Shown here in pieces: positions 2,205-44,551 of a stretch of DNA of 64,000 nucleotides. Both the position numbers and the translations under genes were made by a program. Numbering within the stretch: the first letter of the stretch is position 1; every line of letters starts with the position of its first letter. The notes below the pieces were generated by a model that worked only from the letters and a program-made list of their open reading frames with translations, was not told the DNA's origin and did not search any database. Source of the DNA: a virus; the IMG/VR virus record IMGVR_UViG_3300002052_000634, positions 36,618 through 100,617 of that record. One strand, written 5' to 3'.

Positions 2205-2233
2205 ATTATATCATATAAATAGCTTGGTGTCAA
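2205..2233 (-). promoter_or_regulatory. Consensus sigma70 promoter with extended -10
   Basis: TTGACA-17-TATAAT, with TG directly before the -10 (tatgaTATAAT). Confidence 0.85.
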
Positions 2234-2347: not shown

Positions 2348-3013
2348 TTATTTAGAGTTCTTCTTATGTTTATTTTGCTCGCCATGTTCTTGTTTCCTTT
2401 TCCATTTATAATATCTTTTCATAATTTCTTCGAAGCTTACAGGATAGAAATTCCAACAATCTACACCAACATTGATAGCATCGGTAAAACCAAAGGAGGT
2501 TTTTATCCGTTTAATTTGCCATGCTAAATGAACATGCCCTACTAGATTTATTTTATAGTTAGGGTCGACGTGAGCAGGATTGTGTACTATATTTATTCTT
2601 TTACCTCCATATCGAATTACTAATCTTTCGATAGGAGTTTTTACTCCATTATTTCCGTCATGATTTCCTTTACAAAACAAAATTTTTCCATTCAATTTCT
2701 TCTCTATTTCTGTAGGTTTAATCGGAAGTCCTTCTCCTTTTTTTCCACCTGGAGAATTCTTAAAAATGAAATCGCCAACAAAAATAACTAAATCTTCTGG
2801 TTTTACTCTTTCATTCCAACGTCTAATTAATTCTTTATTCATTTTATCTAGAGATTCGAAACTAATAGCGAATTTTCGTTGTTCTTCTTGGGATTTATTT
2901 TTATAAATTTCATATAACTCTTTATCTTCTTTAGTCATAAATTCAGTACGACCTACATATTTTAAAATATTAGCATGGTTAAAGTGAGTATCTGCTGAAA
3001 ACCAAAGTTTCAT
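2348..3013 (-). CDS. Calcineurin-like metallophosphoesterase
   Basis: ADTHFNH, VGDF, GNHD, HNP and GHVH motifs, plus NVGVD typical of phage phosphoesterases. Confidence 0.9.
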   Translation of the reverse strand: MKLWFSADTHFNHANILKYVGRTEFMTKEDKELYEIYKNKSQEEQRKFAISFESLDKMNKELIRRWNERVKPEDLVIFVGDFIFKNSPGGKKGEGLPIKPTEIEKKLNGKILFCKGNHDGNNGVKTPIERLVIRYGGKRINIVHNPAHVDPNYKINLVGHVHLAWQIKRIKTSFGFTDAINVGVDCWNFYPVSFEEIMKRYYKWKRKQEHGEQNKHKKNSK

Positions 3014-4005
3014 TTCTTTCCTTTCTCATCTGCTTCTTTCAAAGGACTATCTTGTTCTAAGTGATGTAAGACTAAATTTTTTACAATTTCTCTTCTGTCA
3101 TTAGACCACTTTAAATACAAAGCTAATCTGGTCACAAATTCTACTGCTAACAATTCATGCTTTATATAATTACTTCTATCTTCTCTATCAGTTCTCACGA
3201 AAGGTTTACCAATATCATGTAACAGTCCTGCCCATCTAAGATTTATTTCTTTAGGAGTATTAAGAACTACTCTCTTTGTATGTTCCCACAAAGTAAAGTT
3301 ATGATGAGGGCTGTTTTGTTCATAAGCTATTTGCAAAGATAATTCTGGAAGTATAAAATTCAATAATTTTGTTTTTGCCAAAAATTCTAATCCTACTTCT
3401 GGATGGTCTGCCAATAGTAATTTATCGAGTTCGGCTACCCATCTTTCCTTACTAATCTGTAATATTTTATAATTCATAGAATTTACAGCATGATAAATAG
3501 AAGGATGTATTTCAAATTCTAACTGAGAAGCGAATCTAGCTACTCTAAGCATCCTCAAGGGGTCTTCTTTGAATCTCTCATTTGGCTTTCCAACACATCT
3601 AATAATTTTATCTTGAATATCTTTTCTTCCACCAAAAGGGTCAATGTATCTATCTCCTGTTTTAGCAATAGCGTTAATGGTAAAATCTCTTCTGCTTAAA
3701 TCAGCAGTGATGTCTTTGACAAAAGTAACTTCAGGTTTTCTACTTCCAGATTTATATTTTTCATTTCTAAATGTAGTTATCTCAATTAGATTACCGTTTA
3801 TTTTTACTCCTAAAGTCCCGAATCTTTTTCCTGTCAAATAAGGTCTTCTACCTGCTTTTCTAATAGAAGCTTCAATTTCATCTGGAGTTAAAGGAGTAGT
3901 AAAATCAAAATCTTTAGGAACGTTCCCTAAAATTTTATCTCTAACTGCTCCTCCTACCATATAGAGAGGACTAACTATTTTTTTGACTTCTTCGTATATA
4001 GTCAT
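3010..4005 (-). CDS. cca: Class II CCA-adding tRNA nucleotidyltransferase with HD domain
   Basis: VGGAVRD, DFDF, RRDFTINA, EDPLRMLR, ER...E and LLHDIGK motifs. Confidence 0.9.
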   Translation of the reverse strand: MTIYEEVKKIVSPLYMVGGAVRDKILGNVPKDFDFTTPLTPDEIEASIRKAGRRPYLTGKRFGTLGVKINGNLIEITTFRNEKYKSGSRKPEVTFVKDITADLSRRDFTINAIAKTGDRYIDPFGGRKDIQDKIIRCVGKPNERFKEDPLRMLRVARFASQLEFEIHPSIYHAVNSMNYKILQISKERWVAELDKLLLADHPEVGLEFLAKTKLLNFILPELSLQIAYEQNSPHHNFTLWEHTKRVVLNTPKEINLRWAGLLHDIGKPFVRTDREDRSNYIKHELLAVEFVTRLALYLKWSNDRREIVKNLVLHHLEQDSPLKEADEKGKK

Positions 4006-4948
4006 ATAAAATCCCTATTGTAAATTTTTCGATTTCTTCAGTTCTCGGTTTAGCAGGTAGCGTACTCGATATTGTCAAAGATTCCATTTCTCTTTCTAGT
4101 TGCTCAGAAAATTCCAAGACTTGTTCTACAGTCCATTTGCCTTCTCTAATATCTAGAAGTAATTGTCTTTCTTTCAAAGGGAATTCTAATTTGCCAGTTT
4201 TCAATAATTCTATTCCTTCTAACATTAATCTTATTAAATGACTCGCAAATTTTACATCGAATCCATATCTATTTAACAACCCTCTCCTATTTCCTACTTT
4301 TGATATTCTTTCTTCTAAACTCTTTATAACTTTCTTAATTGGTAACGATGGAGAAAAATTTATATCTCCGATTGAAACAAACTTTACATTATTATATCCC
4401 GATTTTCTTAATTTAATAAAATGAGGACAAGTAGATAAAGTAATAACTTCTATTAGAAATTTATTTTTATCTATTTTCGAAAGATAATTAACTCCATTAA
4501 TCAAGTCAAAATAACAATCTTTCTTTATTATCATTTTGTGTTTTTGAGAAAAAGCATATCCTAAAAATTTTTGTTTTAATCCTTTATGTGGAAAAAGATG
4601 TTTAATATCTAATAATTTCTGTCCTAATTCATTTTTGAATACTATATTTTTTTCGTTTACAAATAATATCTCCAAAATATTAGGGTTATTTGAAAGAGCG
4701 AGTTGGATAAATTTTCTAAATTCGTAGAGTTTTCTATCTATAGCTTTATCAGTATTTTTTCCGTTTTCGTCTTTGGCTTTTATAGAAAGATTAACTTCTT
4801 CACATTTTTTAAATCCCAATATATATTCTATAGGAGATAAGAAAATCCCTATATAATCTTTGTCAGAATTTTCAGTGTTAGTTCCATACAAATGAGACCC
4901 TGATATTATTTCTAAAATTTTATTTTTATCGGCAATTAAAGGATTCAT
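3971..4948 (-). CDS. Pol-beta superfamily nucleotidyltransferase (RlaP/YcgL-like)
   Basis: SGSHLYGTNTENSDKD (GS...DxD), NPNILE, K..SHLIRL, LLDIR.G and LPAKP motifs. Confidence 0.85.
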   Translation of the reverse strand: MNPLIADKNKILEIISGSHLYGTNTENSDKDYIGIFLSPIEYILGFKKCEEVNLSIKAKDENGKNTDKAIDRKLYEFRKFIQLALSNNPNILEILFVNEKNIVFKNELGQKLLDIKHLFPHKGLKQKFLGYAFSQKHKMIIKKDCYFDLINGVNYLSKIDKNKFLIEVITLSTCPHFIKLRKSGYNNVKFVSIGDINFSPSLPIKKVIKSLEERISKVGNRRGLLNRYGFDVKFASHLIRLMLEGIELLKTGKLEFPLKERQLLLDIREGKWTVEQVLEFSEQLEREMESLTISSTLPAKPRTEEIEKFTIGILYDYIRRSQKNS

Positions 4949-5092
4949 TTATCCTTCCCCATCAACTCATCGAGTTCCTCATTATTAGTACATTCTTCAA
5001 ATACGTGAGGATAGCATTTTTGGATTCTTGCTAGTATAGTAAATGCAAGAACTAATTGCTTGAGAGTGTGTTCATATTTTTGTATTATTTTT

Positions 5093-5488
5093 TCAAATGA
5101 CATTTATCTTTTTAATCTTTCTCTTTAAATTTAAAAATAGATTAACCTCTTTAGAAGGTCTATCATAATAGTAATTATTAGACGTTGCCACCCAATAAGG
5201 ATTAATATAAAATATTTCTTTAATTTCTGCCCACGCAATCGCAGTTAAACACATAGGACAAGGTTCTCCAGAACAATATATTTTAGCTGTTGTTAAAAAT
5301 TCGGTTTTTTCTTTTTTACATACTTTTCTAATAACTTGAATTTCTGCATGGGCAGTTGGGTCATGTTTTAAGGTCACTTCATTAACTGCAAAATACTGTT
5401 TACCTTTATATTCTATACAAGCCGAAAAAGGATAGCCTTTTCTATTTCTATTTGCTAATCTAATTAATTGTTTAGCTATTTTTTGCAT
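5093..5488 (-). CDS. Zn-dependent nucleoside/guanine deaminase (CDA fold)
   Basis: PF, DPTAHAE and EPCPMC motifs. Start moved to MQKIAK. Confidence 0.85.
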   Translation of the reverse strand: MQKIAKQLIRLANRNRKGYPFSACIEYKGKQYFAVNEVTLKHDPTAHAEIQVIRKVCKKEKTEFLTTAKIYCSGEPCPMCLTAIAWAEIKEIFYINPYWVATSNNYYYDRPSKEVNLFLNLKRKIKKINVI

Positions 5489-6683
5489 TTTAATCCCATT
5501 CATACCAATGTTTGTCACGTTTTTCTAAACAGCACCTTATCGCTAATTCTACATCCCACTTATAATATCCACATTCTCCATTAGATAAGATTGGGCAAGT
5601 GTTTATTCCGAATTTTTCGTTAAATACTTTTTCGGAGATATTATAAATTTTAATAATTTTAGAAATTTCTTCTTTAGTATATCCTAATGAGTCTTTAGGT
5701 TCTGGTAAATTAAGTTTTTTCATTTTTATTCCTCTCTATATGCCAATATTTCATATTCGTCATATCGTACATACCAAACTTTATAAATTGTATATCTTTG
5801 AGAAGAAAGAGAATTTAATTCTTTTTCTAATGTTATAGCATGTAGTTTAATTTTATGTATCCATTTTTTCATAATATCTCCTTTTATATTCTCTTGCTTT
5901 TGAAGGCAATAAAGAACACATCAGATTTTCTTCCAACATTCTATCTCTAACAATTTGATATTTTTCTACTATACTTATAGCATAAAGGTCTGTATATCCA
6001 AATTGTATATTAAATTCTTTCAATAAAAAATTATAATAATCTACTAATTTATCTTTTTCACAATAATGACATTGTGCTAAAGTAGGTATATTATGCCATT
6101 TTTCAGGATTGCAATATTCTATTAATATCCTAGCCCAAGATTTTTTATACATTATTATAATCCTATTTTCAATCTTTGCATTGTTTCGTATATTTCTAAT
6201 TTTTCTTCATAGGTATAATTACAAATTCCAGAACTATCCAAATGTCCACAGCCTTCACAAAATCTCTCGCTAATATTTTCTTTTTCCCATTCGGGGCAAA
6301 AGTTTTCTAAAATTTCAAATTTCATTTCTCTTCCTCCAATGTAAATAATCCTTGATGACCACAAGGTAAACAACTTGCTCTAATTTTATCCTCATCTTTT
6401 TTAGTAACAACTTTCCAATAAGTTTTCTCTCCACAAATCATACATTTTTGAACTAAAATTCTAACTTTCATTATATTATGCCTTTCGTTCATTATATTAT
6501 TTATTGTCAGCTACTGTAATTTCTAAATGACTATGTAAAGGAACTAAATAACCATCAGAAGCCCATTTAATAATTTCACTTACTGGAGTATCAGGGTCAA
6601 ATATTTTAGTTTCTCTCCACATATCTCCTACAGTAGTGTTTCCAGCCGAGCAGTGTTTTATAGCTATGATTTTTGGAAAAGTA

Positions 6684-6909: not shown

Positions 6910-6972
6910 TGGTGAGGGACAGTCGAGCAGGAATCCCTACTCCTTGATTATTCCATTAGGAAACTGCCCCTC
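6910..6972 (-). ncRNA. 63-nt CCA-terminated mini tRNA-like RNA without an anticodon arm
   Basis: GAGGGGCAGT pairs over 10 bp with ACTGTCCCTC, followed by ACCA. Internal hairpins are TTCC-TAAT-GGAA and GAGTAGG-GATT-CCTGCTC. It is a GC-rich island in an intergenic gap. Confidence 0.6.
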
Positions 6973-7131
6973 TTATTTTTCTAATTTCGTTAATTCATCA
7001 TCAGTAATGGTACAACATACAACATTCTCATCTTCATTATAATAAACAGCATAACCTTGTCTAACTAGAGCAGTTATAAGTTGGTCTGTATAATTTTTGT
7101 CTAATATTTGGATTTTAAGTTCGTATTTCAT
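6973..7131 (-). CDS. 52-aa hypothetical protein (MKYELKIQILDK...)
   Basis: Manual translation. Its stop codon abuts the 5' G of the mini-tRNA. Confidence 0.55.
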   Translation of the reverse strand: MKYELKIQILDKNYTDQLITALVRQGYAVYYNEDENVVCCTITDDELTKLEK

Positions 7132-7720
7132 TTAGAATTTTCTTTCTGGTTTTTTTATTCAATATTTTTATAAATCTTTTTTTTAAAGGTTTTTTCTTTA
7201 ATTCTAATCTATTGCCATAAATTTCTTTCATTTTCCCAACTGCTTGTATTCCATGTTTATCATACAAGGTTCTCGGTGAAATTCTTTTACCATCAATAAA
7301 AAATAAAGGATGACCGTCCTTTCCAATAATTCCATCAAATATCCATCCACTTGCTTTATATACCATTCCATTATGACCAGCAAAAGGGTCTGAATATGTA
7401 ACAATCAAATCATAATTATATGATTTTTTGATTTTTTTTATTACTTCTGCTGTTAAACTACTCATACTCCATTTGTGGTTATCTTTACCGACCATTCTTG
7501 CTAATTCAATAACTTTTATATTTTTTTGACTGTATTTTTTTTCATAAATCCTCGACCTACAATTTGTAAATACCAAACAACCTTCTTCGTGTCCATAAGC
7601 AAATAAAATCCCTTTTACTTCTCCAAGATAATGCCATTTATTTAACATAGTATTTGCTATTTTTTTATCCAATTTGATAATTGGTGGAGTTTTCTGTAAT
7701 CCGCTTAATTTGTAATTCAT
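7115..7720 (-). CDS. mom: Mom-family (GNAT-fold) DNA adenine modification protein, copy 2
   Basis: WHYLG, IELARM, VTYSDP..GHNGMVYKASGW, DGKRISPR and K.RF motifs. Confidence 0.8.
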   Translation of the reverse strand: MNYKLSGLQKTPPIIKLDKKIANTMLNKWHYLGEVKGILFAYGHEEGCLVFTNCRSRIYEKKYSQKNIKVIELARMVGKDNHKWSMSSLTAEVIKKIKKSYNYDLIVTYSDPFAGHNGMVYKASGWIFDGIIGKDGHPLFFIDGKRISPRTLYDKHGIQAVGKMKEIYGNRLELKKKPLKKRFIKILNKKTRKKILNEIRT

Positions 7721-8794: not shown

Positions 8795-9118
8795 ATTTGC
8801 CTTAAATTTTTCAGTTTTATTTCCATAATTTTAATTGGTTTATCACTTTCCCATCCGATAAAAACGTCAAAAATAGCTTCTTTCTTCTTTTCATTCCAAG
8901 TTCTAAAAACAACATTTTTAGCAAATACTTTAGTTTCTAAAAATCTTAAAGGAGATAAATAACTGGCTATTAAATTGTCAAATTCTGCATTACACTTTAT
9001 CATATATTCCTCCTACATTATCATGCTAAAAAATCAGTTATCCAATAATTACCGAAACGCCATCGTCCTTTTTTATCAATATGCCAATAAAAAGGACTTT
9101 TCATTATTTATGCCTCCT

Positions 9119-9628
9119 TTATAATAAAGCAATTATTCCTGCTATTCCTACTCCTAATCCTGTCATAAATTCAGTCATATTAATATAAAATCCAAAAATA
9201 AATAAAAGAGGCAAAGGCTTATAAATACAATTCCAATAAATATTATTAATAGTTGCCATAATTATTGAAATAGGAAACAGCCACCAATGACCCATTAAAA
9301 AACAAAATAAACCTACACTACCTCCATATAATAATCCCAATGTGGCACGTGTTAAAAGATTAGCTATTTGATGTTCATAAAATTTTGTCCAAAAAAGATA
9401 AACTGGAGCAGTTTTACCATATCCCGTTGCTATTGCTCCCCATATCAATAAAAAAATTATTGTAATATAGAAAATATTCGTTAGAGTTAATGGGATTTTA
9501 AATAAAGCAAAAATAGTTAATGGAACTGCAACACACATCCATCTCCATTGACCCCCAATATTGCCTCCGATAGCCCAACCAAAAGCACTAATTAAAATTA
9601 TTATAAGAGCTATGATTAAATTTACCAT
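9119..9628 (-). CDS. Multi-pass membrane protein
   Basis: About 5-6 hydrophobic segments. Confidence 0.7.
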   Translation of the reverse strand: MVNLIIALIIILISAFGWAIGGNIGGQWRWMCVAVPLTIFALFKIPLTLTNIFYITIIFLLIWGAIATGYGKTAPVYLFWTKFYEHQIANLLTRATLGLLYGGSVGLFCFLMGHWWLFPISIIMATINNIYWNCIYKPLPLLFIFGFYINMTEFMTGLGVGIAGIIALL

Positions 9629-9655
9629 TTTTCTATTTCTCCAGATATTAGGATA

Positions 9656-9679
9656 GAGGGAGAATATATATTCTCCCTC
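9656..9679. terminator. Perfect 24-bp palindrome (terminator or processing hairpin)
   Basis: GAGGGAGAATATATATTCTCCCTC. Confidence 0.5.
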
Positions 9680-9708
9680 GTATTCTATACTTTCCTTATA
9701 AATCTAAA

Positions 9709-9864
9709 TTACCCTTTAATAAAATGACCAACTACAACAGCACCTATTCCTACTAATGCCAATATAGCTACTATAGGATTAATTTTAGCTACCATAATCC
9801 CTGCTACTGCTACCGCAGTAACTCCACTACCCTGAACTATAAGACCTATTTCTTTTCGGTTCAT
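9709..9864 (-). CDS. 51-aa two-TM membrane peptide
   Basis: MNRKEIGLIVQGSGVTAVAVAGIMVAKINPIVAILALVGIGAVVVGHFIKG, with GGAGG RBS and its own promoter. Confidence 0.7.
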   Translation of the reverse strand: MNRKEIGLIVQGSGVTAVAVAGIMVAKINPIVAILALVGIGAVVVGHFIKG

Positions 9865-9917
9865 AATTTCCTCCATGTAAACATTACTGTATATAATAAT
9901 TTGTTTCTAGTACCTAT

Positions 9918-9946
9918 ATTATATCATATAATATGTTTGGTGTCAA
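9918..9946 (-). promoter_or_regulatory. Consensus sigma70 promoter with extended -10
   Basis: cTTGACAcc-17-tatgaTATAAT. Confidence 0.85.
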
Positions 9947-9956
9947 GGTTTTAAAT

Positions 9957-10576
9957 CTATTTATTTTTGTTTAGTAAATCAAAATTTATCTTATATCTTT
10001 GATTTTTTCCTTTTGGGTAAGGTAATACTTTATATCTTAAATTATGTCTAAATACTGTTTTGTCTGCCTTATTGCCAAGAAATAAGATATACCTGTGTTT
10101 TGGAAACCAGGCTACTCTTTCTGTAAAATCTCCTACATAATGTCTAGGATGTTTTCCTCCTTTTCCTTTTATATGAGTTCTTTTTTTTTCCCACATCCAG
10201 TATATATAAAATTTAATGCTTGATATATATATCCAAAATGATTCATTTTTGTGTCACTATAACTAACAATTATTTTCGTTTTTTCAATTTGTTTTAAACA
10301 TCTAGAAACAAAAAAAGAAAAGCTATTTTTAGGTAAGTTTTCTTTTATAACTAATCTATTAAGTTCTAATACGAATTTTTTAAAAGGTTCTCCGCAAATG
10401 CCTTTGCATACATTAGGACTTGCAAGTTGTCCAAAGGTACATACTCCTATCATTTCTTCTTTATCAAATAACCCAAAAGCTACTGATATAGAAGGTATCC
10501 TTTTAGCGTAATGAATATTTAATAACCATTTTTTAGTATCTTTATATTCTATTCTTCTAACTTCATATTGTATCAT
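9957..10576 (-). CDS. mom: Mom-family DNA adenine modification protein, copy 1, split by a frameshift at an A9 tract (10181-10189)
   Basis: The 10169..10576 part has HYA, FGLF, GVCTFG, ELNRL and SYSD..NHFGYIYQALNFIYTG. The -1 frame part 9957..10196 supplies the family-like C-terminus (HPRH, KHRYILFLG, LPYPK). Confidence 0.8.
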
Positions 10577-10590
10577 ATTTTGCCTTATTT

Positions 10591-10660
10591 TGGAGCGAAG
10601 AGGTCGATTTTACGCCATCTTAACTCTGGAAGAGTTATGTTTTAATTAAACTATCTTCGC
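10591..10660 (-). tRNA. Non-canonical tRNA-Gly(UCC), 70 nt, CCA encoded
   Basis: Acceptor GCGAAGA/TCTTCGC, then U73 and CCA. D-arm GTTT-AATTA-AAAC has no GG. Anticodon arm is TAACT-CTTCCAG-AGTTA. The T-arm is degenerate (GGCG-TAAAAT-CGACC, no TTC). Confidence 0.8.
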
Positions 10661-10666
10661 AATTCT

Positions 10667-10695
10667 ATTATATCATATATTACTGTTCGTGTCAA
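10667..10695 (-). promoter_or_regulatory. Consensus sigma70 promoter for the tRNA-Gly/mom unit
   Basis: TTGACA-17-TATAAT with TG. An A12 tract lies upstream (10708-10719, UP-like). The predicted +1 falls on tRNA G1. Confidence 0.85.
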
Positions 10696-10699
10696 GGGT

Positions 10700-12150
10700 A
10701 CGTATCCTTTTTTTTTTTTCTACTATGTCACATCTCCACTCCGTTCCGTTCCGTCATTTCACTAATCCTTACCCTTCCAGGGGGCTACTTTGTCAGAAAA
10801 ACTATACATCTTTTGTGACAACTATACCTTTACTTTCTGACCATAATACAAACTGCTAATGTTTACCCTACCTCAATGTTCACTAAATAGTGAACTATAA
10901 TAATCCAGTGAACCTTAATGTCTCATATATAATGGACATTTTGCGACAATGGACTTTTCTAAATAGGGTATTCTAACAGTTATATTACCCCATTTATGCT
11001 AAACGTTACCCCATTAATTACCTAACGAACTGCCGAATTCCGTACCTTGTTAGGTAAGCCCTCTTACGTAGATATAACTAAGTAACGTGGCGTATATACG
11101 TGTATATACAGGCTTATATAGGTTTATATAAGTTTATGTACGTTTCCGTATAATTTCGCTTTTAGCGTTTCGCTTAATGTGAAATGGGTATTTAAACGTA
11201 CCGCTAGGGGGCGAGTGTAGCTCTAGGAGCATTATTTAAGGCTTTTAAGGGTAGGGTGACGGTAGTAATTTTAGGAGCGTATGGAACGTAATTGTGTCAT
11301 TTTTTGAGGCGATATGAACCAATTTTAGGGCGTTACAGATGCGATTAGCCGAAGGAACGGAGCGAAGTGGAATCGGGGTATTTGTTATTGTTCGGAGCGA
11401 TAGCGGTCAGAAACGGTTCGTTATGGTTCGTTTTGGAACGTTATTGGCGTGAAATGGGGTGATAGTAGGGGTTTAAAGTATCAAAAAACTAGCTTTTGCT
11501 AATCTTAACCCCTATGGTCTTATATTTATAACTTATTGATATATAAAGACTTATATATATTTACTTTAGGCTATAATTTATTATTATAACCTTTATTACT
11601 TTAAATTCCCATAAAAATATATTTTATATAGATTTGCCTATGTTTGTATATGTTTACCTAGCTTTATATACATTTTAATTATTACCTATTTATTATTTTA
11701 ACTAATTGATACATAAAACTTTATAAAGATATTTAATAACTAACTATTATTTATATTAAAGTGACTTTTACATCTACATAACTAGCTATTTATTATACTA
11801 ATTACTTATTATAGATATTTAATAAATGGACATTTATTATCAGGCTTTTTTAAAGGATTAAATAAGTTAGAGGTATTATCTGACTATTTATTTACTTAAC
11901 ATGAGATAGAATTATTAAAAAAGTTTAAGAAGTAGGGGTTTTATAAAGATATTTAATAAGATAGGTTATTATCTAGCTTTTTATACTGTTAATAGCAGAT
12001 ATCCAAGGAATAAACTGACTTTTTATTTTTTTAATTGTAGGGATAATGTTAAGATAGACAATAGCTTAATTTATTATTTGCCTTTTCGCTTGACATAGTG
12101 TATACTTAATTTGTATTTGAAAAATAAAAACAAGGTAACAAAGGGGTAAA
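10700..12150. other. Divergent non-coding hub (candidate origin or terminus region)
   Basis: No ORF of 60 aa or more. Gene orientation switches here, C-rich changes to G-rich on the + strand near 11100, and there are palindromes and a 20-bp direct repeat (11720, 11940). Confidence 0.55.
12078..12106 (+). promoter_or_regulatory. First rightward early promoter
   Basis: TTGCCT-17-TATACT upstream of ORF 12156. Confidence 0.65.
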
Positions 12151-19524: not shown

Positions 19525-19869
19525 ATGGAGATTAAAAAATTATATAAATTTAGAGATTGCATATCTGAAAGTCAACGAGTATATCATTATTTAAAAAATA
19601 AAGGATATAATCCTTATATGATAGAGGGATATGTAGAAGTAAATAATCCTCTTGACATTTTACCAGATAAAGAATTTTTATTTTTCTTTTATCCCGACGA
19701 ACTCAAAAAAGTTGAACAGGATATATATTATGAAGATTATCCGAAAGTATTAAAACATACTTGGATAGAAGTTAATAATCATAAAATAGATATTACAAAA
19801 AATCAATTTGATATTTATAATGGAATATCAAAATATTATTCATTAGAAAAATATAATATAGAGGTATAA
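19525..19869 (+). CDS. Transglutaminase/papain-like protein
   Basis: Candidate Cys-His-Asp triad: DCISES, HTWIEV, IDITKNQF. Confidence 0.6.
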   Translation: MEIKKLYKFRDCISESQRVYHYLKNKGYNPYMIEGYVEVNNPLDILPDKEFLFFFYPDELKKVEQDIYYEDYPKVLKHTWIEVNNHKIDITKNQFDIYNGISKYYSLEKYNIEV

Positions 19870-33001: not shown

Positions 33002-33030
33002 TTGACACCAACGATATTATATGATATAAT
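33002..33030 (+). promoter_or_regulatory. Consensus promoter sharing a 23-mer with the promoter at 2.2 kb
   Basis: TTGACA-17-TATAAT. 32989-33011 is the reverse complement of 2224-2246. Confidence 0.85.
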
Positions 33031-36503: not shown

Positions 36504-37103
36504 ATGTCAGAAAAAATAAAATATACTACTTATACCGCAGGATATATAGAAGCAGACCCTCAAGGAGCGGGGGATTGGAGAGATGAAATATATAATTCTC
36601 TTAATCATCCAGATTTAGAAATTTATGACCCTGTTAGACGTGAAGCTCAAAAGACAAGTAAAAAATCTGGCGAGTATGTAGATTATGTTATTGGATTGAA
36701 AAAAGCAGGACGTTGGGAACAGTTTATGAAAGAAATGAATAAAATTTGGCTTGGTAACATTCACCCAACACACGACCTTCTGGAAATTTTTAAGTTATTG
36801 AGATACAGAAAAATTATTGACGGAAATACCAAACCTGAGATGGACGTATGGGCTGATTATGAAGCGGTTATTCGCTCCGATTTTGTAATTGCTTATATGA
36901 AAAAAGGAGTGCAAACTGTAGGAACTGTTATTGAAATTTTCTTAGCTATGTTATTTAGAATCCCTGTTTATCTAATTTTAGATGCTCCGAAAACGGAAAC
37001 AAATTCTACTCTTGTAATGATGGTTATGTATTCTGGAGGAGAATTTTTTTATTCAACGAAGGACTTAATTAAGTATATAAAAGAGAAATATAATTTAGAA
37101 TAA
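36504..37103 (+). CDS. Nucleoside 2-deoxyribosyltransferase-like protein
   Basis: YTAG.IE..WR, YDP and SDFVIAY...GT..E motifs. Confidence 0.7.
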   Translation: MSEKIKYTTYTAGYIEADPQGAGDWRDEIYNSLNHPDLEIYDPVRREAQKTSKKSGEYVDYVIGLKKAGRWEQFMKEMNKIWLGNIHPTHDLLEIFKLLRYRKIIDGNTKPEMDVWADYEAVIRSDFVIAYMKKGVQTVGTVIEIFLAMLFRIPVYLILDAPKTETNSTLVMMVMYSGGEFFYSTKDLIKYIKEKYNLE

Positions 37104-43749: not shown

Positions 43750-44540
43750 TGAAAAAATTAATTTTTATATGCGGTCTTTGTGTTATCGAGAACAAAAAAG
43801 AAACCATAAACATTGCTAAAAAATTGAAGGAGATAACTGACAAATATCCTGTTGAATTTATTTTTAAAGCGAGTTATGATAAAGCAAATAGAACTTCTGA
43901 CCTTTCATTTAGAGGAATCGGATTGATGCAAGGTATATATGTTTTAAGTGAAATTAAAGAAATGGGTATTAAAGTTTTGACAGATATTCATTGTTCTCAT
44001 CAAGTTAAAATGGCAGGGTGTTGTGCTGATGTTATTCAGATACCTGCATTTTTATGTAGACAAACTGATTTAGTTAAAGCAATCGGGGCGACAGGAAAAA
44101 CTGTCAATATTAAAAAAGGGCAGTTTCTTGCTCCAGAAGACGTAAAATATATAATTCAAAAGATAGAACATACAGGTAACAATGATATAATGATTACAGA
44201 ACGAGGTACGTGTTTTGGTTATCATAATTTAATCGTAGATTATCGTTCTTTTTTGATATTAAAGAAAATGGGTTATCCTGTCATTTTCGACGCAACTCAT
44301 GCCCAACAACGACCATCGGCAGGGGATGGAATATCAGAAGGTAATCGAGAATTTACAGAACCTATGATATTTGGAGCTATTGCTTGTGGAGTAGATGGAA
44401 TATTTATTGAAATCCATCCTGACCCGACAAAAGCAAAATCTGATAGTGCTACATCTCTTTATCTCGATAACGTAGAATCCTTATTGAAGAAAATGGTAGC
44501 AATTAAAAATGTTATCGAAACTTTGACAGAAAGCAAATAA
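43749..44540 (+). CDS. kdsA: KDO 8-phosphate synthase
   Basis: KASYDKANRTS..SFRG, QIPAFLCRQT, NIKKGQF, ERG..FGY, DATH and E.HPDP..A.SD motifs. Confidence 0.95.
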   Translation: MKKLIFICGLCVIENKKETINIAKKLKEITDKYPVEFIFKASYDKANRTSDLSFRGIGLMQGIYVLSEIKEMGIKVLTDIHCSHQVKMAGCCADVIQIPAFLCRQTDLVKAIGATGKTVNIKKGQFLAPEDVKYIIQKIEHTGNNDIMITERGTCFGYHNLIVDYRSFLILKKMGYPVIFDATHAQQRPSAGDGISEGNREFTEPMIFGAIACGVDGIFIEIHPDPTKAKSDSATSLYLDNVESLLKKMVAIKNVIETLTESK

Positions 44541-44551
44541 TATGATATAAT
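44523..44551 (+). promoter_or_regulatory. Consensus promoter
   Basis: TTGACA-17-TATAAT with TG. Confidence 0.75.

Follow-up and report, generated by a model that had tools for sequence, protein, structure and literature searches.

A 64,000-nt stretch of an uncultured phage genome (IMG/VR virus record IMGVR_UViG_3300002052_000634, positions 36,618 to 100,617; hereafter the window) contains the gene for a 70-nt, non-canonical tRNA-Gly(UCC)-like RNA that ends just upstream of a gene encoding a Mom-family DNA-modification enzyme. Our sequence comparisons suggest that this RNA is probably a phage tRNA-Gly that has been freed from decoding and serves the phage's Mom enzymes as a dedicated carrier of glycyl groups. 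Members of the same RNA family lie against Mom genes in more than 100 viral contigs, a linkage that makes Mom's own glycine carrier the most likely role.

Mom of phage Mu transfers glycine from Gly-tRNA-Gly to the N6 of adenine in duplex DNA, and the product rearranges to a carbamoylmethyl adduct (PMC13219725). The enzyme is selective for tRNA-Gly and does not accept Gly-tRNA-Ala (PMC13219725). This use of a charged tRNA on DNA was published only in 2026; the donor was assumed to come from the host, and the authors regard it as a co-opted resource of the host (Silva et al., Nat Commun 2026, PMC13219725). A first-pass annotation of the window had named both the donor and the product as they have been shown for Mu Mom, and had proposed that the phage encodes a chargeable, translation-excluded tRNA for Mom. 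It knew of no description of a unit combining mom with a private tRNA, and our literature search found no paper describing a Mom-linked phage tRNA. The unit is not unique to this phage; it is widespread.

The tRNA-Gly-like RNA and its Mom-linked family

The consensus promoter, the 70-nt tRNA and the CCA end 14 nt before a Mom ATG that the first-pass annotation had described were all confirmed, on the minus strand (Table 1). The minimum-energy fold of the RNA is a cloverleaf (−17.8 kcal/mol, z −3.3), equalled by 1 of 200 shuffled sequences. Its acceptor stem, GCGAAGA/TCTTCGC, forms seven Watson-Crick pairs, including G1-C72, C2-G71 and G3-C70, and is followed by the discriminator U73 and an encoded CCA. 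In classical work on E. coli, G1-C72, C2-G71, G3-C70, U73, C35 and C36 were identified as the identity set of glycyl-tRNA synthetase (GlyRS). All six determinants can be read from the window RNA, as had been claimed. The same set is cited in PMC7826273.

The anticodon arm, TAACT-CTTCCAG-AGTTA, has a regular 5-bp stem and a 7-nt loop, CUUCCAG, with U33, UCC and A37. The RNA therefore has the cloverleaf, the 7-bp acceptor stem and the anticodon arm of a canonical tRNA; the elbow nucleotides and a regular 5-bp T stem are missing. More specifically, the D arm comprises a 4-bp stem and a 5-nt loop, AAUUA, without GG (G18G19), and the 6-nt T loop, UAAAAU, is without TTC. The T stem is irregular, with four pairs and an extra A in its 3' strand (GGCG-UAAAAU-CG-A-CC). 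These are the losses initially reported.

It had also been anticipated that general tRNA tools would score the RNA poorly or not at all. ARAGORN did not call it in standard mode, including with the relaxed thresholds -ps and -ps80, and Rfam RF00005 gave no match in positions 9000–12000 even at E ≤ 10 and none in the window at the gathering score. The mitochondrial mode of ARAGORN called the RNA as Gly(tcc), alongside 16 other dubious calls in the 100-kb genome; this mode is too permissive, and the call was not counted as evidence.

Stronger evidence came from other phages. In one of 80 metagenome Mom loci (L159), ARAGORN's permissive mode identified a Gly(tcc)-like element whose end lies ~40 nt upstream of the Mom domain. 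A locus whose Mom is 56% identical (L163) has the same element. The two elements differ by paired changes in the D, anticodon and T stems, and their anticodon loops and 3' ends are identical. A covariance model, R1, was built from these two sequences only, which lie beside Mom genes of unrelated phages; the window sequence was excluded. Searched against both strands of the window, R1 gave one match (model positions 1–75, 35.6 bits, E 5.5e-7), which coincides with the 70-nt RNA at 10591–10660 on the minus strand. Because R1 was built without the window sequence, this match is an independent test of the RNA's membership of the family. A broader model, R2, likewise had a single match in the whole 100.6-kb genome, the same RNA (E 4e-12). 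The family is defined here by R1 and R2.

The stems of the family covary. In an alignment of 22 distinct Mom-linked sequences (A6), 97.8% of stem cells form standard pairs, as against 64% in column shuffles and ~40% with slid partners, and changes on both sides were found in 18 of the 22 pairs. The covariation score was 0.82 versus 0.19, and none of 500 shuffles scored as high. An additional A in the 3' T-stem strand (GGCG[G]-loop-[C]CG-A-CC), as in the window RNA, recurs in 14 of the 22 rows and in all loci selected by the motif described below.

Conservation was counted over 78 distinct family members. Random decay that extends to the identity elements, the pattern named in advance as contrary to the proposal, was not what we saw: the initial GCG, pairing with CGC, occurs in 76 members, U73 in 75 and CC at anticodon positions 35–36 in all 78. 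CCA is encoded in 54. The features used in decoding are far more variable. The anticodon loop has 7 nt in 45 members, only 19 of which have U33; 25 members have 8-nt loops, and the others have loops of 6, 9, 11 or 14 nt. About half of the family has TGC in place of TTC in the T loop, and D-loop GG is likewise absent from about half. A few members are canonical by the standard of ARAGORN, which called 12 of 80 loci as tRNA-Gly. The form with the 6-nt loop is 94–96% identical between loci whose mom DNA is 73–83% identical and whose downstream DNA is 47–68% identical; on this comparison, the abnormal form is under purifying selection.

Overall, as judged by model score, covariation and conservation, the RNA is a real structured family and a chance fold is excluded. 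Its conservation pattern fits an RNA that would be charged but would not decode. The window RNA is the AT-rich extreme of this Mom-linked family, with the decoding loop intact and the elbow gone. The proposal of a chargeable, translation-excluded tRNA for Mom thus gains comparative support from a covarying family tied to Mom, from the retained identity elements and from an abnormal decoding loop in about three-quarters of the members.

Linkage to Mom was scored in the forward direction as a tRNA lying against, or within ~100 nt of, a Mom gene. Such an RNA was present in 8 of 80 metagenome Mom loci, in 17 of 80 loci retrieved with the Mom of L117 and in 3 of 12 retrieved with that of L159. The arrangement varies. 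In L157 and L158, the RNA ends ~6 nt before the Mom ATG. In six loci (L105, L117, L129, L131, L173 and L174), its first base is the base after the Mom stop codon. Among L230–L252, it occurs in 15 loci, mostly 0–2 codons past the conserved C-terminal YPK of Mom. The cultured Salinibacter phage B2_17 (L264, OR896349.1:19225-19833) has an annotated tRNA-Gly (at 19761–19833) 33 nt after a Mom-like gene, with an anticodon loop, CGUCCAG, that has G33 instead of U33, and with the extra-A T stem. Non-Gly tRNAs near Mom were nearly absent from the first 252 loci, being limited to one tRNA-Tyr and one multi-tRNA array.

In the reverse test, IMG/VR was scanned with an 18-base motif, comprising the extra-A T arm and the start of the acceptor 3' strand, without selecting on Mom. 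At least 120 stretches carried the motif. Among the matches listed, which comprised 80 loci, 73 had a Mom-family frame, at a distance of ≤150 nt in 70; in all seven listed loci without Mom, the motif lay at the locus edge. In the 57 listed loci in which both R2 and the Mom hidden Markov model could be placed, the RNA and Mom were always on the same strand. Of these loci, 38 have the RNA downstream of Mom; the other 19 have it upstream, the arrangement of the window. Exceptional arrangements also occur: the RNA is on the strand opposite to Mom in L232 and L233, and lies 2–3 kb from Mom in L120 and L005, the copy in L005 being 2 kb away and on the other strand.

Several loci had further features. 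L120 has tandem tRNA-Gly-like genes at 613–689 and 709–791, 2.8 kb upstream of a Mom gene, with 9-nt anticodon loops (CUUUUCCAG, UUUUUCCAA) and no encoded CCA. In L159 (3831–4669) and L163 (2249–2472 and 3302–3525), a leader open reading frame (ORF) coupled to the upstream gene reads in frame via the tRNA into Mom in 3 of 3 cases. L163 contains two tandem Mom paralogues, each preceded by the same 224-nt repeat, containing the end of the upstream gene, a conserved short leader ORF (MDLSKLS.EEL...) and the same tRNA-Gly-like element. In nine loci with the tRNA 0–2 codons past YPK (L235, L237, L241, L242, L244, L247, L249, L251 and L252, at ~1900–2150), no stop separates the two, and the Mom frame closes within the tRNA or past it, in a phase that varies. 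Where the Mom frame runs through the tRNA in this way, or no stop precedes the tRNA, as in many downstream-type loci, tRNA excision and Mom translation may be alternative fates of one transcript. L137, from a 146-kb contig that also carries a 7-tRNA array, has a sub-threshold match to the Rfam model YrlA (Y-RNA-like) at 3594–3659 (39.8 bits, E 2e-5), ~340 nt upstream of a Mom gene.

The mom genes and their surroundings

The window phage has two Mom genes. Copy 1, directly behind the RNA, starts at the ATG at 10576, since an in-frame TAA inside the T loop (10612–10610) closes the upstream frame; the read-through seen in other lineages does not, therefore, apply to the window. In its product, R74 and S87 occupy the aligned positions of R111 and S124, which are essential in Mu Mom (PMC13219725). 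In an alignment of eight sequences, the catalytic arginine is invariant, and the serine is present in both copy 1 and copy 2.

The first-pass annotation had not mentioned that the frame of copy 1 breaks, after 135 codons, at a run of nine adenines (A9). An uninterrupted frame of ~200 aa was found in copy 2 only. At the corresponding run, relatives such as L081 have A7, and A7 and A10 are the only in-frame lengths. The identical 135-aa product, with A9, was found on four contigs, and a 144-aa variant on another corresponds to A11. The run may be a site of transcriptional slippage, a −1 frameshift site (A AAA AAA), a hypervariable off-switch or an inactivation of copy 1. Copy 2 is a possible user of the tRNA. 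Mom matches in two pieces or two coding sequences also occur in the Bacillus phage PSYJ-YH (OQ870554.1), the Staphylococcus phage BSwM-KMM1 (OP902294.1) and the Listeria phage LP-114 (KJ094021.1/NC_024392.1); with such matches in several cultured phages, split Mom genes may be recurrent.

Table 1. Features of the window, by position in the 64,000-nt stretch
Feature	Position	Strand	Evidence or description
Promoter-motif copy	2205..2233	−	motif TTGACAC..AA...TATGATATAAT
CCA-adding enzyme, class II nucleotidyltransferase with HD domain	3010..4005	−	phrog_2244 tRNA nucleotidyltransferase, E 4e-73; PolyA_pol head, RNA-binding and HD domains
RlaP-type RNA-repair nucleotidyltransferase	3971..4948	−	PF10127, E 4.8e-21; phrog_388
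Mom copy 2, intact 201-aa paralogue	7115..7720	−	PF25680, E 2e-19, 70.5 bits, profile positions 6–193
Next promoter, same class as that of the RNA	9918..9946	−	12/12 matches; common promoter motif
Mom copy 1, C-terminal part in the −1 frame (KHRYILFL...LPYPK)	9957..10196	−	weak PF25680 match, positions 171–202; aligns with C-termini of intact relatives
Mom copy 1, N-terminal 135 codons (catalytic part)	10169..10576	−	PF25680, E 1.5e-31, 110 bits (cut-off 27.1), profile positions 2–132 of 202
A9 run breaking the frame of Mom copy 1 (GGG-A9-G)	10181..10189	−	relatives read GCGKKRTH straight through
Spacer from CCA to Mom ATG, 14 nt	10577..10590	−	weak AAGG ribosome-binding site, read from sequence
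Non-canonical tRNA-Gly(UCC)-like gene, 70 nt, encoded CCA	10591..10660	−	cloverleaf fold; covariance-model matches
Sigma-70-type consensus promoter, extended −10	10667..10695	−	TTGACA-17-TATAAT, 12/12 hexamer matches, TG before −10; common promoter motif
Promoter-motif copy	33002..33030	+	same motif
Promoter-motif copy	44523..44551	+	same motif
Promoter-motif copy	58329..58357	+	same motif

The first base of the RNA, G1, lies 7 nt past the end of the −10 hexamer, a spacing from which the transcription start is predicted to be at or next to G1. A second promoter of the same class directly follows Mom copy 1, so that the tRNA and Mom copy 1 form a promoter-to-promoter cassette. Both promoters are copies of one extended motif that occurs six times in the window. 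This motif probably defines a temporal class of phage promoters read by the host primary sigma factor.

The source is a single 100.6-kb record with 27–30% G+C, which encodes a DNA polymerase, a primase, a clamp loader and a UvsX-like recombinase. No DNA similarity to the phage sequence was found among GenBank phages. The whole genome has two Mom genes and one R2 match. No match to the class-II synthetase core PF00587, the only family searched for a phage GlyRS, was found in the whole genome. A cluster at 2348–5518, on the same strand as both Mom genes, encodes a metallophosphoesterase, the CCA-adding enzyme with its HD domain, the RlaP-type RNA-repair nucleotidyltransferase and a cytidine/dCMP-type deaminase, in a phage without a canonical tRNA. 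Downstream of Mom copy 2, a candidate 63-nt RNA (6910–6972, minus strand) exactly fills the gap from the stop codon of a 52-aa ORF to the next ATG. Its fold (−31.6 kcal/mol, z −5.3) comprises two internal hairpins and a terminal stem of 10 bp, after which comes ACCA. This RNA does not resemble the tRNA-Gly model (8 bits, E 2), and neither nhmmer nor blastn found a homologue of it in 424 loci.

A proposed glycyl carrier for Mom and other explanations

If the 70-nt RNA is a glycyl carrier, its spacing from the strong phage promoter suggests that transcription would begin at or next to G1 and yield one transcript comprising the tRNA and then mom copy 1. A cut past the encoded CCA would release the tRNA and leave mom with a 14-nt leader. 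Host GlyRS would be expected to charge the RNA through the six determinants that it retains. By analogy with the staphylococcal non-proteogenic tRNA-Gly, the charged RNA, having neither D-loop GG nor T-loop TTC and carrying an extra A in the T-stem strand that faces EF-Tu, would avoid EF-Tu and the ribosome. Mom copy 2, or copy 1 if the A9 break is bypassed, would then move the glycine to the N6 of adenine in phage DNA, where, as with Mu Mom, rearrangement to N6-carbamoylmethyl-adenine would block restriction. A role of the neighbouring CCA-adding and RNA-repair genes in maintaining the RNA's 3' end is possible, though the link is circumstantial.

Several other explanations were considered. 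It is most improbable that the RNA is a functionless element, either a decaying tRNA pseudogene or a chance cloverleaf. Such an origin would accord with its rejection by standard detectors, with the frameshift in the adjacent Mom copy and with the likely false calls that ARAGORN's mitochondrial mode makes elsewhere in this AT-rich genome; yet the independent R1 match is the only one in the window, every stem is intact, the RNA has its own consensus promoter, and its relatives covary and are more conserved than the coding DNA next to them. We rejected an attP or integration remnant on account of the complete cloverleaf, the RNA's own promoter and its recurrence beside Mom instead of integrases, and a T-box or riboswitch on account of the absent Rfam match and the occurrence of the RNA downstream of Mom as well.

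We also regard as quite unlikely, if somewhat less so, that this is an ordinary, degenerate phage tRNA-Gly(UCC) that aids translation of GGA codons and lies beside mom incidentally. The 5-bp anticodon stem and the 7-nt loop with U33, UCC and A37 would suit such a tRNA, the low G+C content would favour GGA, and ARAGORN accepts a few family members as canonical. However, no other tRNA-like gene occurs in the 100 kb, the RNA has lost the elbow that the ribosome uses, and its T stem has an additional base. Across the family, a normal loop with U33 is found in only 19 of 78 members, and loops of 6–14 nt are unfit for normal triplet decoding. Nor does translation supply predict that 70 of the 80 listed motif loci should abut Mom.

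Two further explanations are unlikely to a similar degree, both a little more credible than a translational tRNA. According to one, the RNA is a decoy or a replacement for tRNA-Gly under attack by acceptor-end-modifying toxins or anticodon nucleases, with the CCA-adding and repair genes as further parts of that counter-defence. Some defence toxins, such as FaRel2, act specifically on the acceptor stem of tRNA-Gly (bioRxiv 10.1101/2024.07.05.602228); the window encodes a CCA-adding enzyme, an RlaP nucleotidyltransferase and a phosphoesterase, and conservation within the family is highest in the features of the acceptor stem. A decoy has no need to adjoin Mom, yet the reverse test showed an almost absolute linkage, with the RNA and Mom on one strand in all listed loci that could be oriented; a replacement tRNA must decode, and most of the family cannot. 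A decoy role could also coexist with that of a donor. The other explanation makes the RNA a cis-acting element of the mom transcript, that is, a tRNA-shaped processing or regulatory signal (an RNase P/Z site or a mimic bound by GlyRS or Mom) that determines the ends, stability or translation of mom mRNA, as opposed to a glycine carrier acting in trans. The RNA is always on the Mom transcript, frequently overlaps with the reading frame of Mom or takes the place of its stop or start context, and forms the 5' end of mom mRNA in the window; moreover, Mom is tightly regulated in Mu, where Com is annotated as a translational regulator. By contrast, a processing signal needs no glycine identity elements, C35C36 or encoded CCA, all of which are conserved, and the RNA occurs on either side of Mom, on the opposite strand in L232 and L233, and 2–3 kb away in L120 and L005. 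Processing in cis would in any case be compatible with a donor role. The translational, decoy and cis-acting explanations each account for part of the data; none of them explains the glycine identity, the loss of decoding features and the linkage to Mom together.

Several observations weigh against a dedicated glycyl carrier. Mu Mom uses all three host isoacceptors (PMC13219725), so a private tRNA is not needed in principle. The anticodon stem-loop of the window RNA is normal, and the loop by itself is thus compatible with decoding. In every assembly seen, whether with A9 or A11, the frame of the Mom gene next to the tRNA is broken, and in some lineages the Mom frame runs through the tRNA. Of the 80 IMG/VR loci nearest to the window Mom, none had the RNA adjacent, and L005 alone had a copy, the distant one described above. 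The RNA was found in none of 36 Mom loci of GTDB genomes, and it was absent from 11 of 12 sampled GenBank phages. In L081, which has the closest Mom relative with DNA (73% identity), an ORF abuts mom and there is no such RNA. Altogether, ~90% of sampled Mom loci lack a linked tRNA; the RNA is therefore an accessory and not a requirement. A single-protein search of IMG/VR returned no close relatives of the window Mom, and Mom of the L158 type had no IMG/VR relatives. Among the nearest protein relatives, P0002, P0004 and P0005 have a Mom identity of 62–78%.

More speculatively, these observations might be joined in a single scheme, which we put forward tentatively and consider doubtful as a whole. 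Many phages would carry a non-decoding, Gly-chargeable tRNA as a built-in co-substrate of Mom, with a fusion so close that the tRNA frequently begins at or ahead of the Mom stop codon or falls within an N-terminal extension; tRNA excision and Mom translation would be alternative fates that set the ratio of enzyme to donor; slippage at A9/A11 would throttle Mom copy 1 in the window phage; and the linked Mom clades may have co-evolved towards a preference for the private over the host tRNA-Gly.

If the RNA is indeed a glycyl carrier for Mom, a viral tRNA kept for its chemistry would represent a third use of phage tRNA genes, beside translation and the evasion of defences, and would give the staphylococcal non-proteogenic tRNAs their first counterpart in a virus. 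Such a carrier would also explain how thousands of glycyl groups could be used on each phage genome with no competition with EF-Tu and no depletion of the pool for translation. Natural 'minimal' variants of tRNA-Gly could reveal what GlyRS and Mom need in a substrate. The 12 of 80 loci called as tRNA-Gly by ARAGORN suggest that standard tRNA finders may miss a whole class of functional viral tRNAs. Salinibacter phage B2_17, which grows on S. ruber M8 and has a Mom-tRNA pair, is a possible, tractable experimental system.

Comparison with known systems

The closest known system is Mom of phage Mu. Mu Mom and both window copies belong to the same family, PF25680, and share the essential arginine and serine; the donor would likewise be a glycine tRNA and the purpose the shielding of phage DNA from restriction. 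Mu differs in having no tRNA gene and in using any host isoacceptor, whereas the window phage has its own non-canonical tRNA-Gly fused to the mom transcription unit. Moreover, the first Mom copy of the window is broken at A9, and the Com, Dam and OxyR control elements of Mu were not seen in the window.

The non-proteogenic tRNA-Gly isoacceptors NP1–NP3 of Staphylococcus, donors for FmhB, FemA and FemB (PMC7826273), are likened to the window RNA as functional analogues only, from their description. They too retain the GlyRS identity set and differ in the D and T arms, and the first-pass annotation had already pointed to similar defects in their D and T loops. They escape EF-Tu, interact poorly with it and with the ribosome, and supply a glycyl transferase that works outside the ribosome (PMC7826273). 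Their lineage has been reported only in staphylococci (PMC7826273). NP1–NP3 are cellular, serve peptidoglycan synthesis and are recognizable tRNAs with normal anticodon loops. By contrast, the phage family is viral, gene-linked and directed at DNA, and it is far more degenerate, with loops of 6–14 nt, frequent loss of U33 and an extra T-stem base.

Ordinary phage tRNAs, such as those of T4, T5 and the Herelleviridae arrays, resemble the window RNA in being viral genes that are expressed from phage promoters and processed from longer transcripts. They are canonical, occur in arrays of multiple specificities and presumably either aid translation or take the place of tRNAs that defences have cut, whereas the window RNA is single, Gly-only, non-canonical and attached to the gene of a tRNA-dependent enzyme. 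The 3' tRNA-like structures of plant viruses (e.g., Rfam RF00233, Tymo_tRNA-like) are viral tRNA mimics that can be charged without decoding. According to the Rfam search, the window RNA has no sequence or model similarity to them. The plant-virus structures stay within genomic RNA and act in replication and translation.

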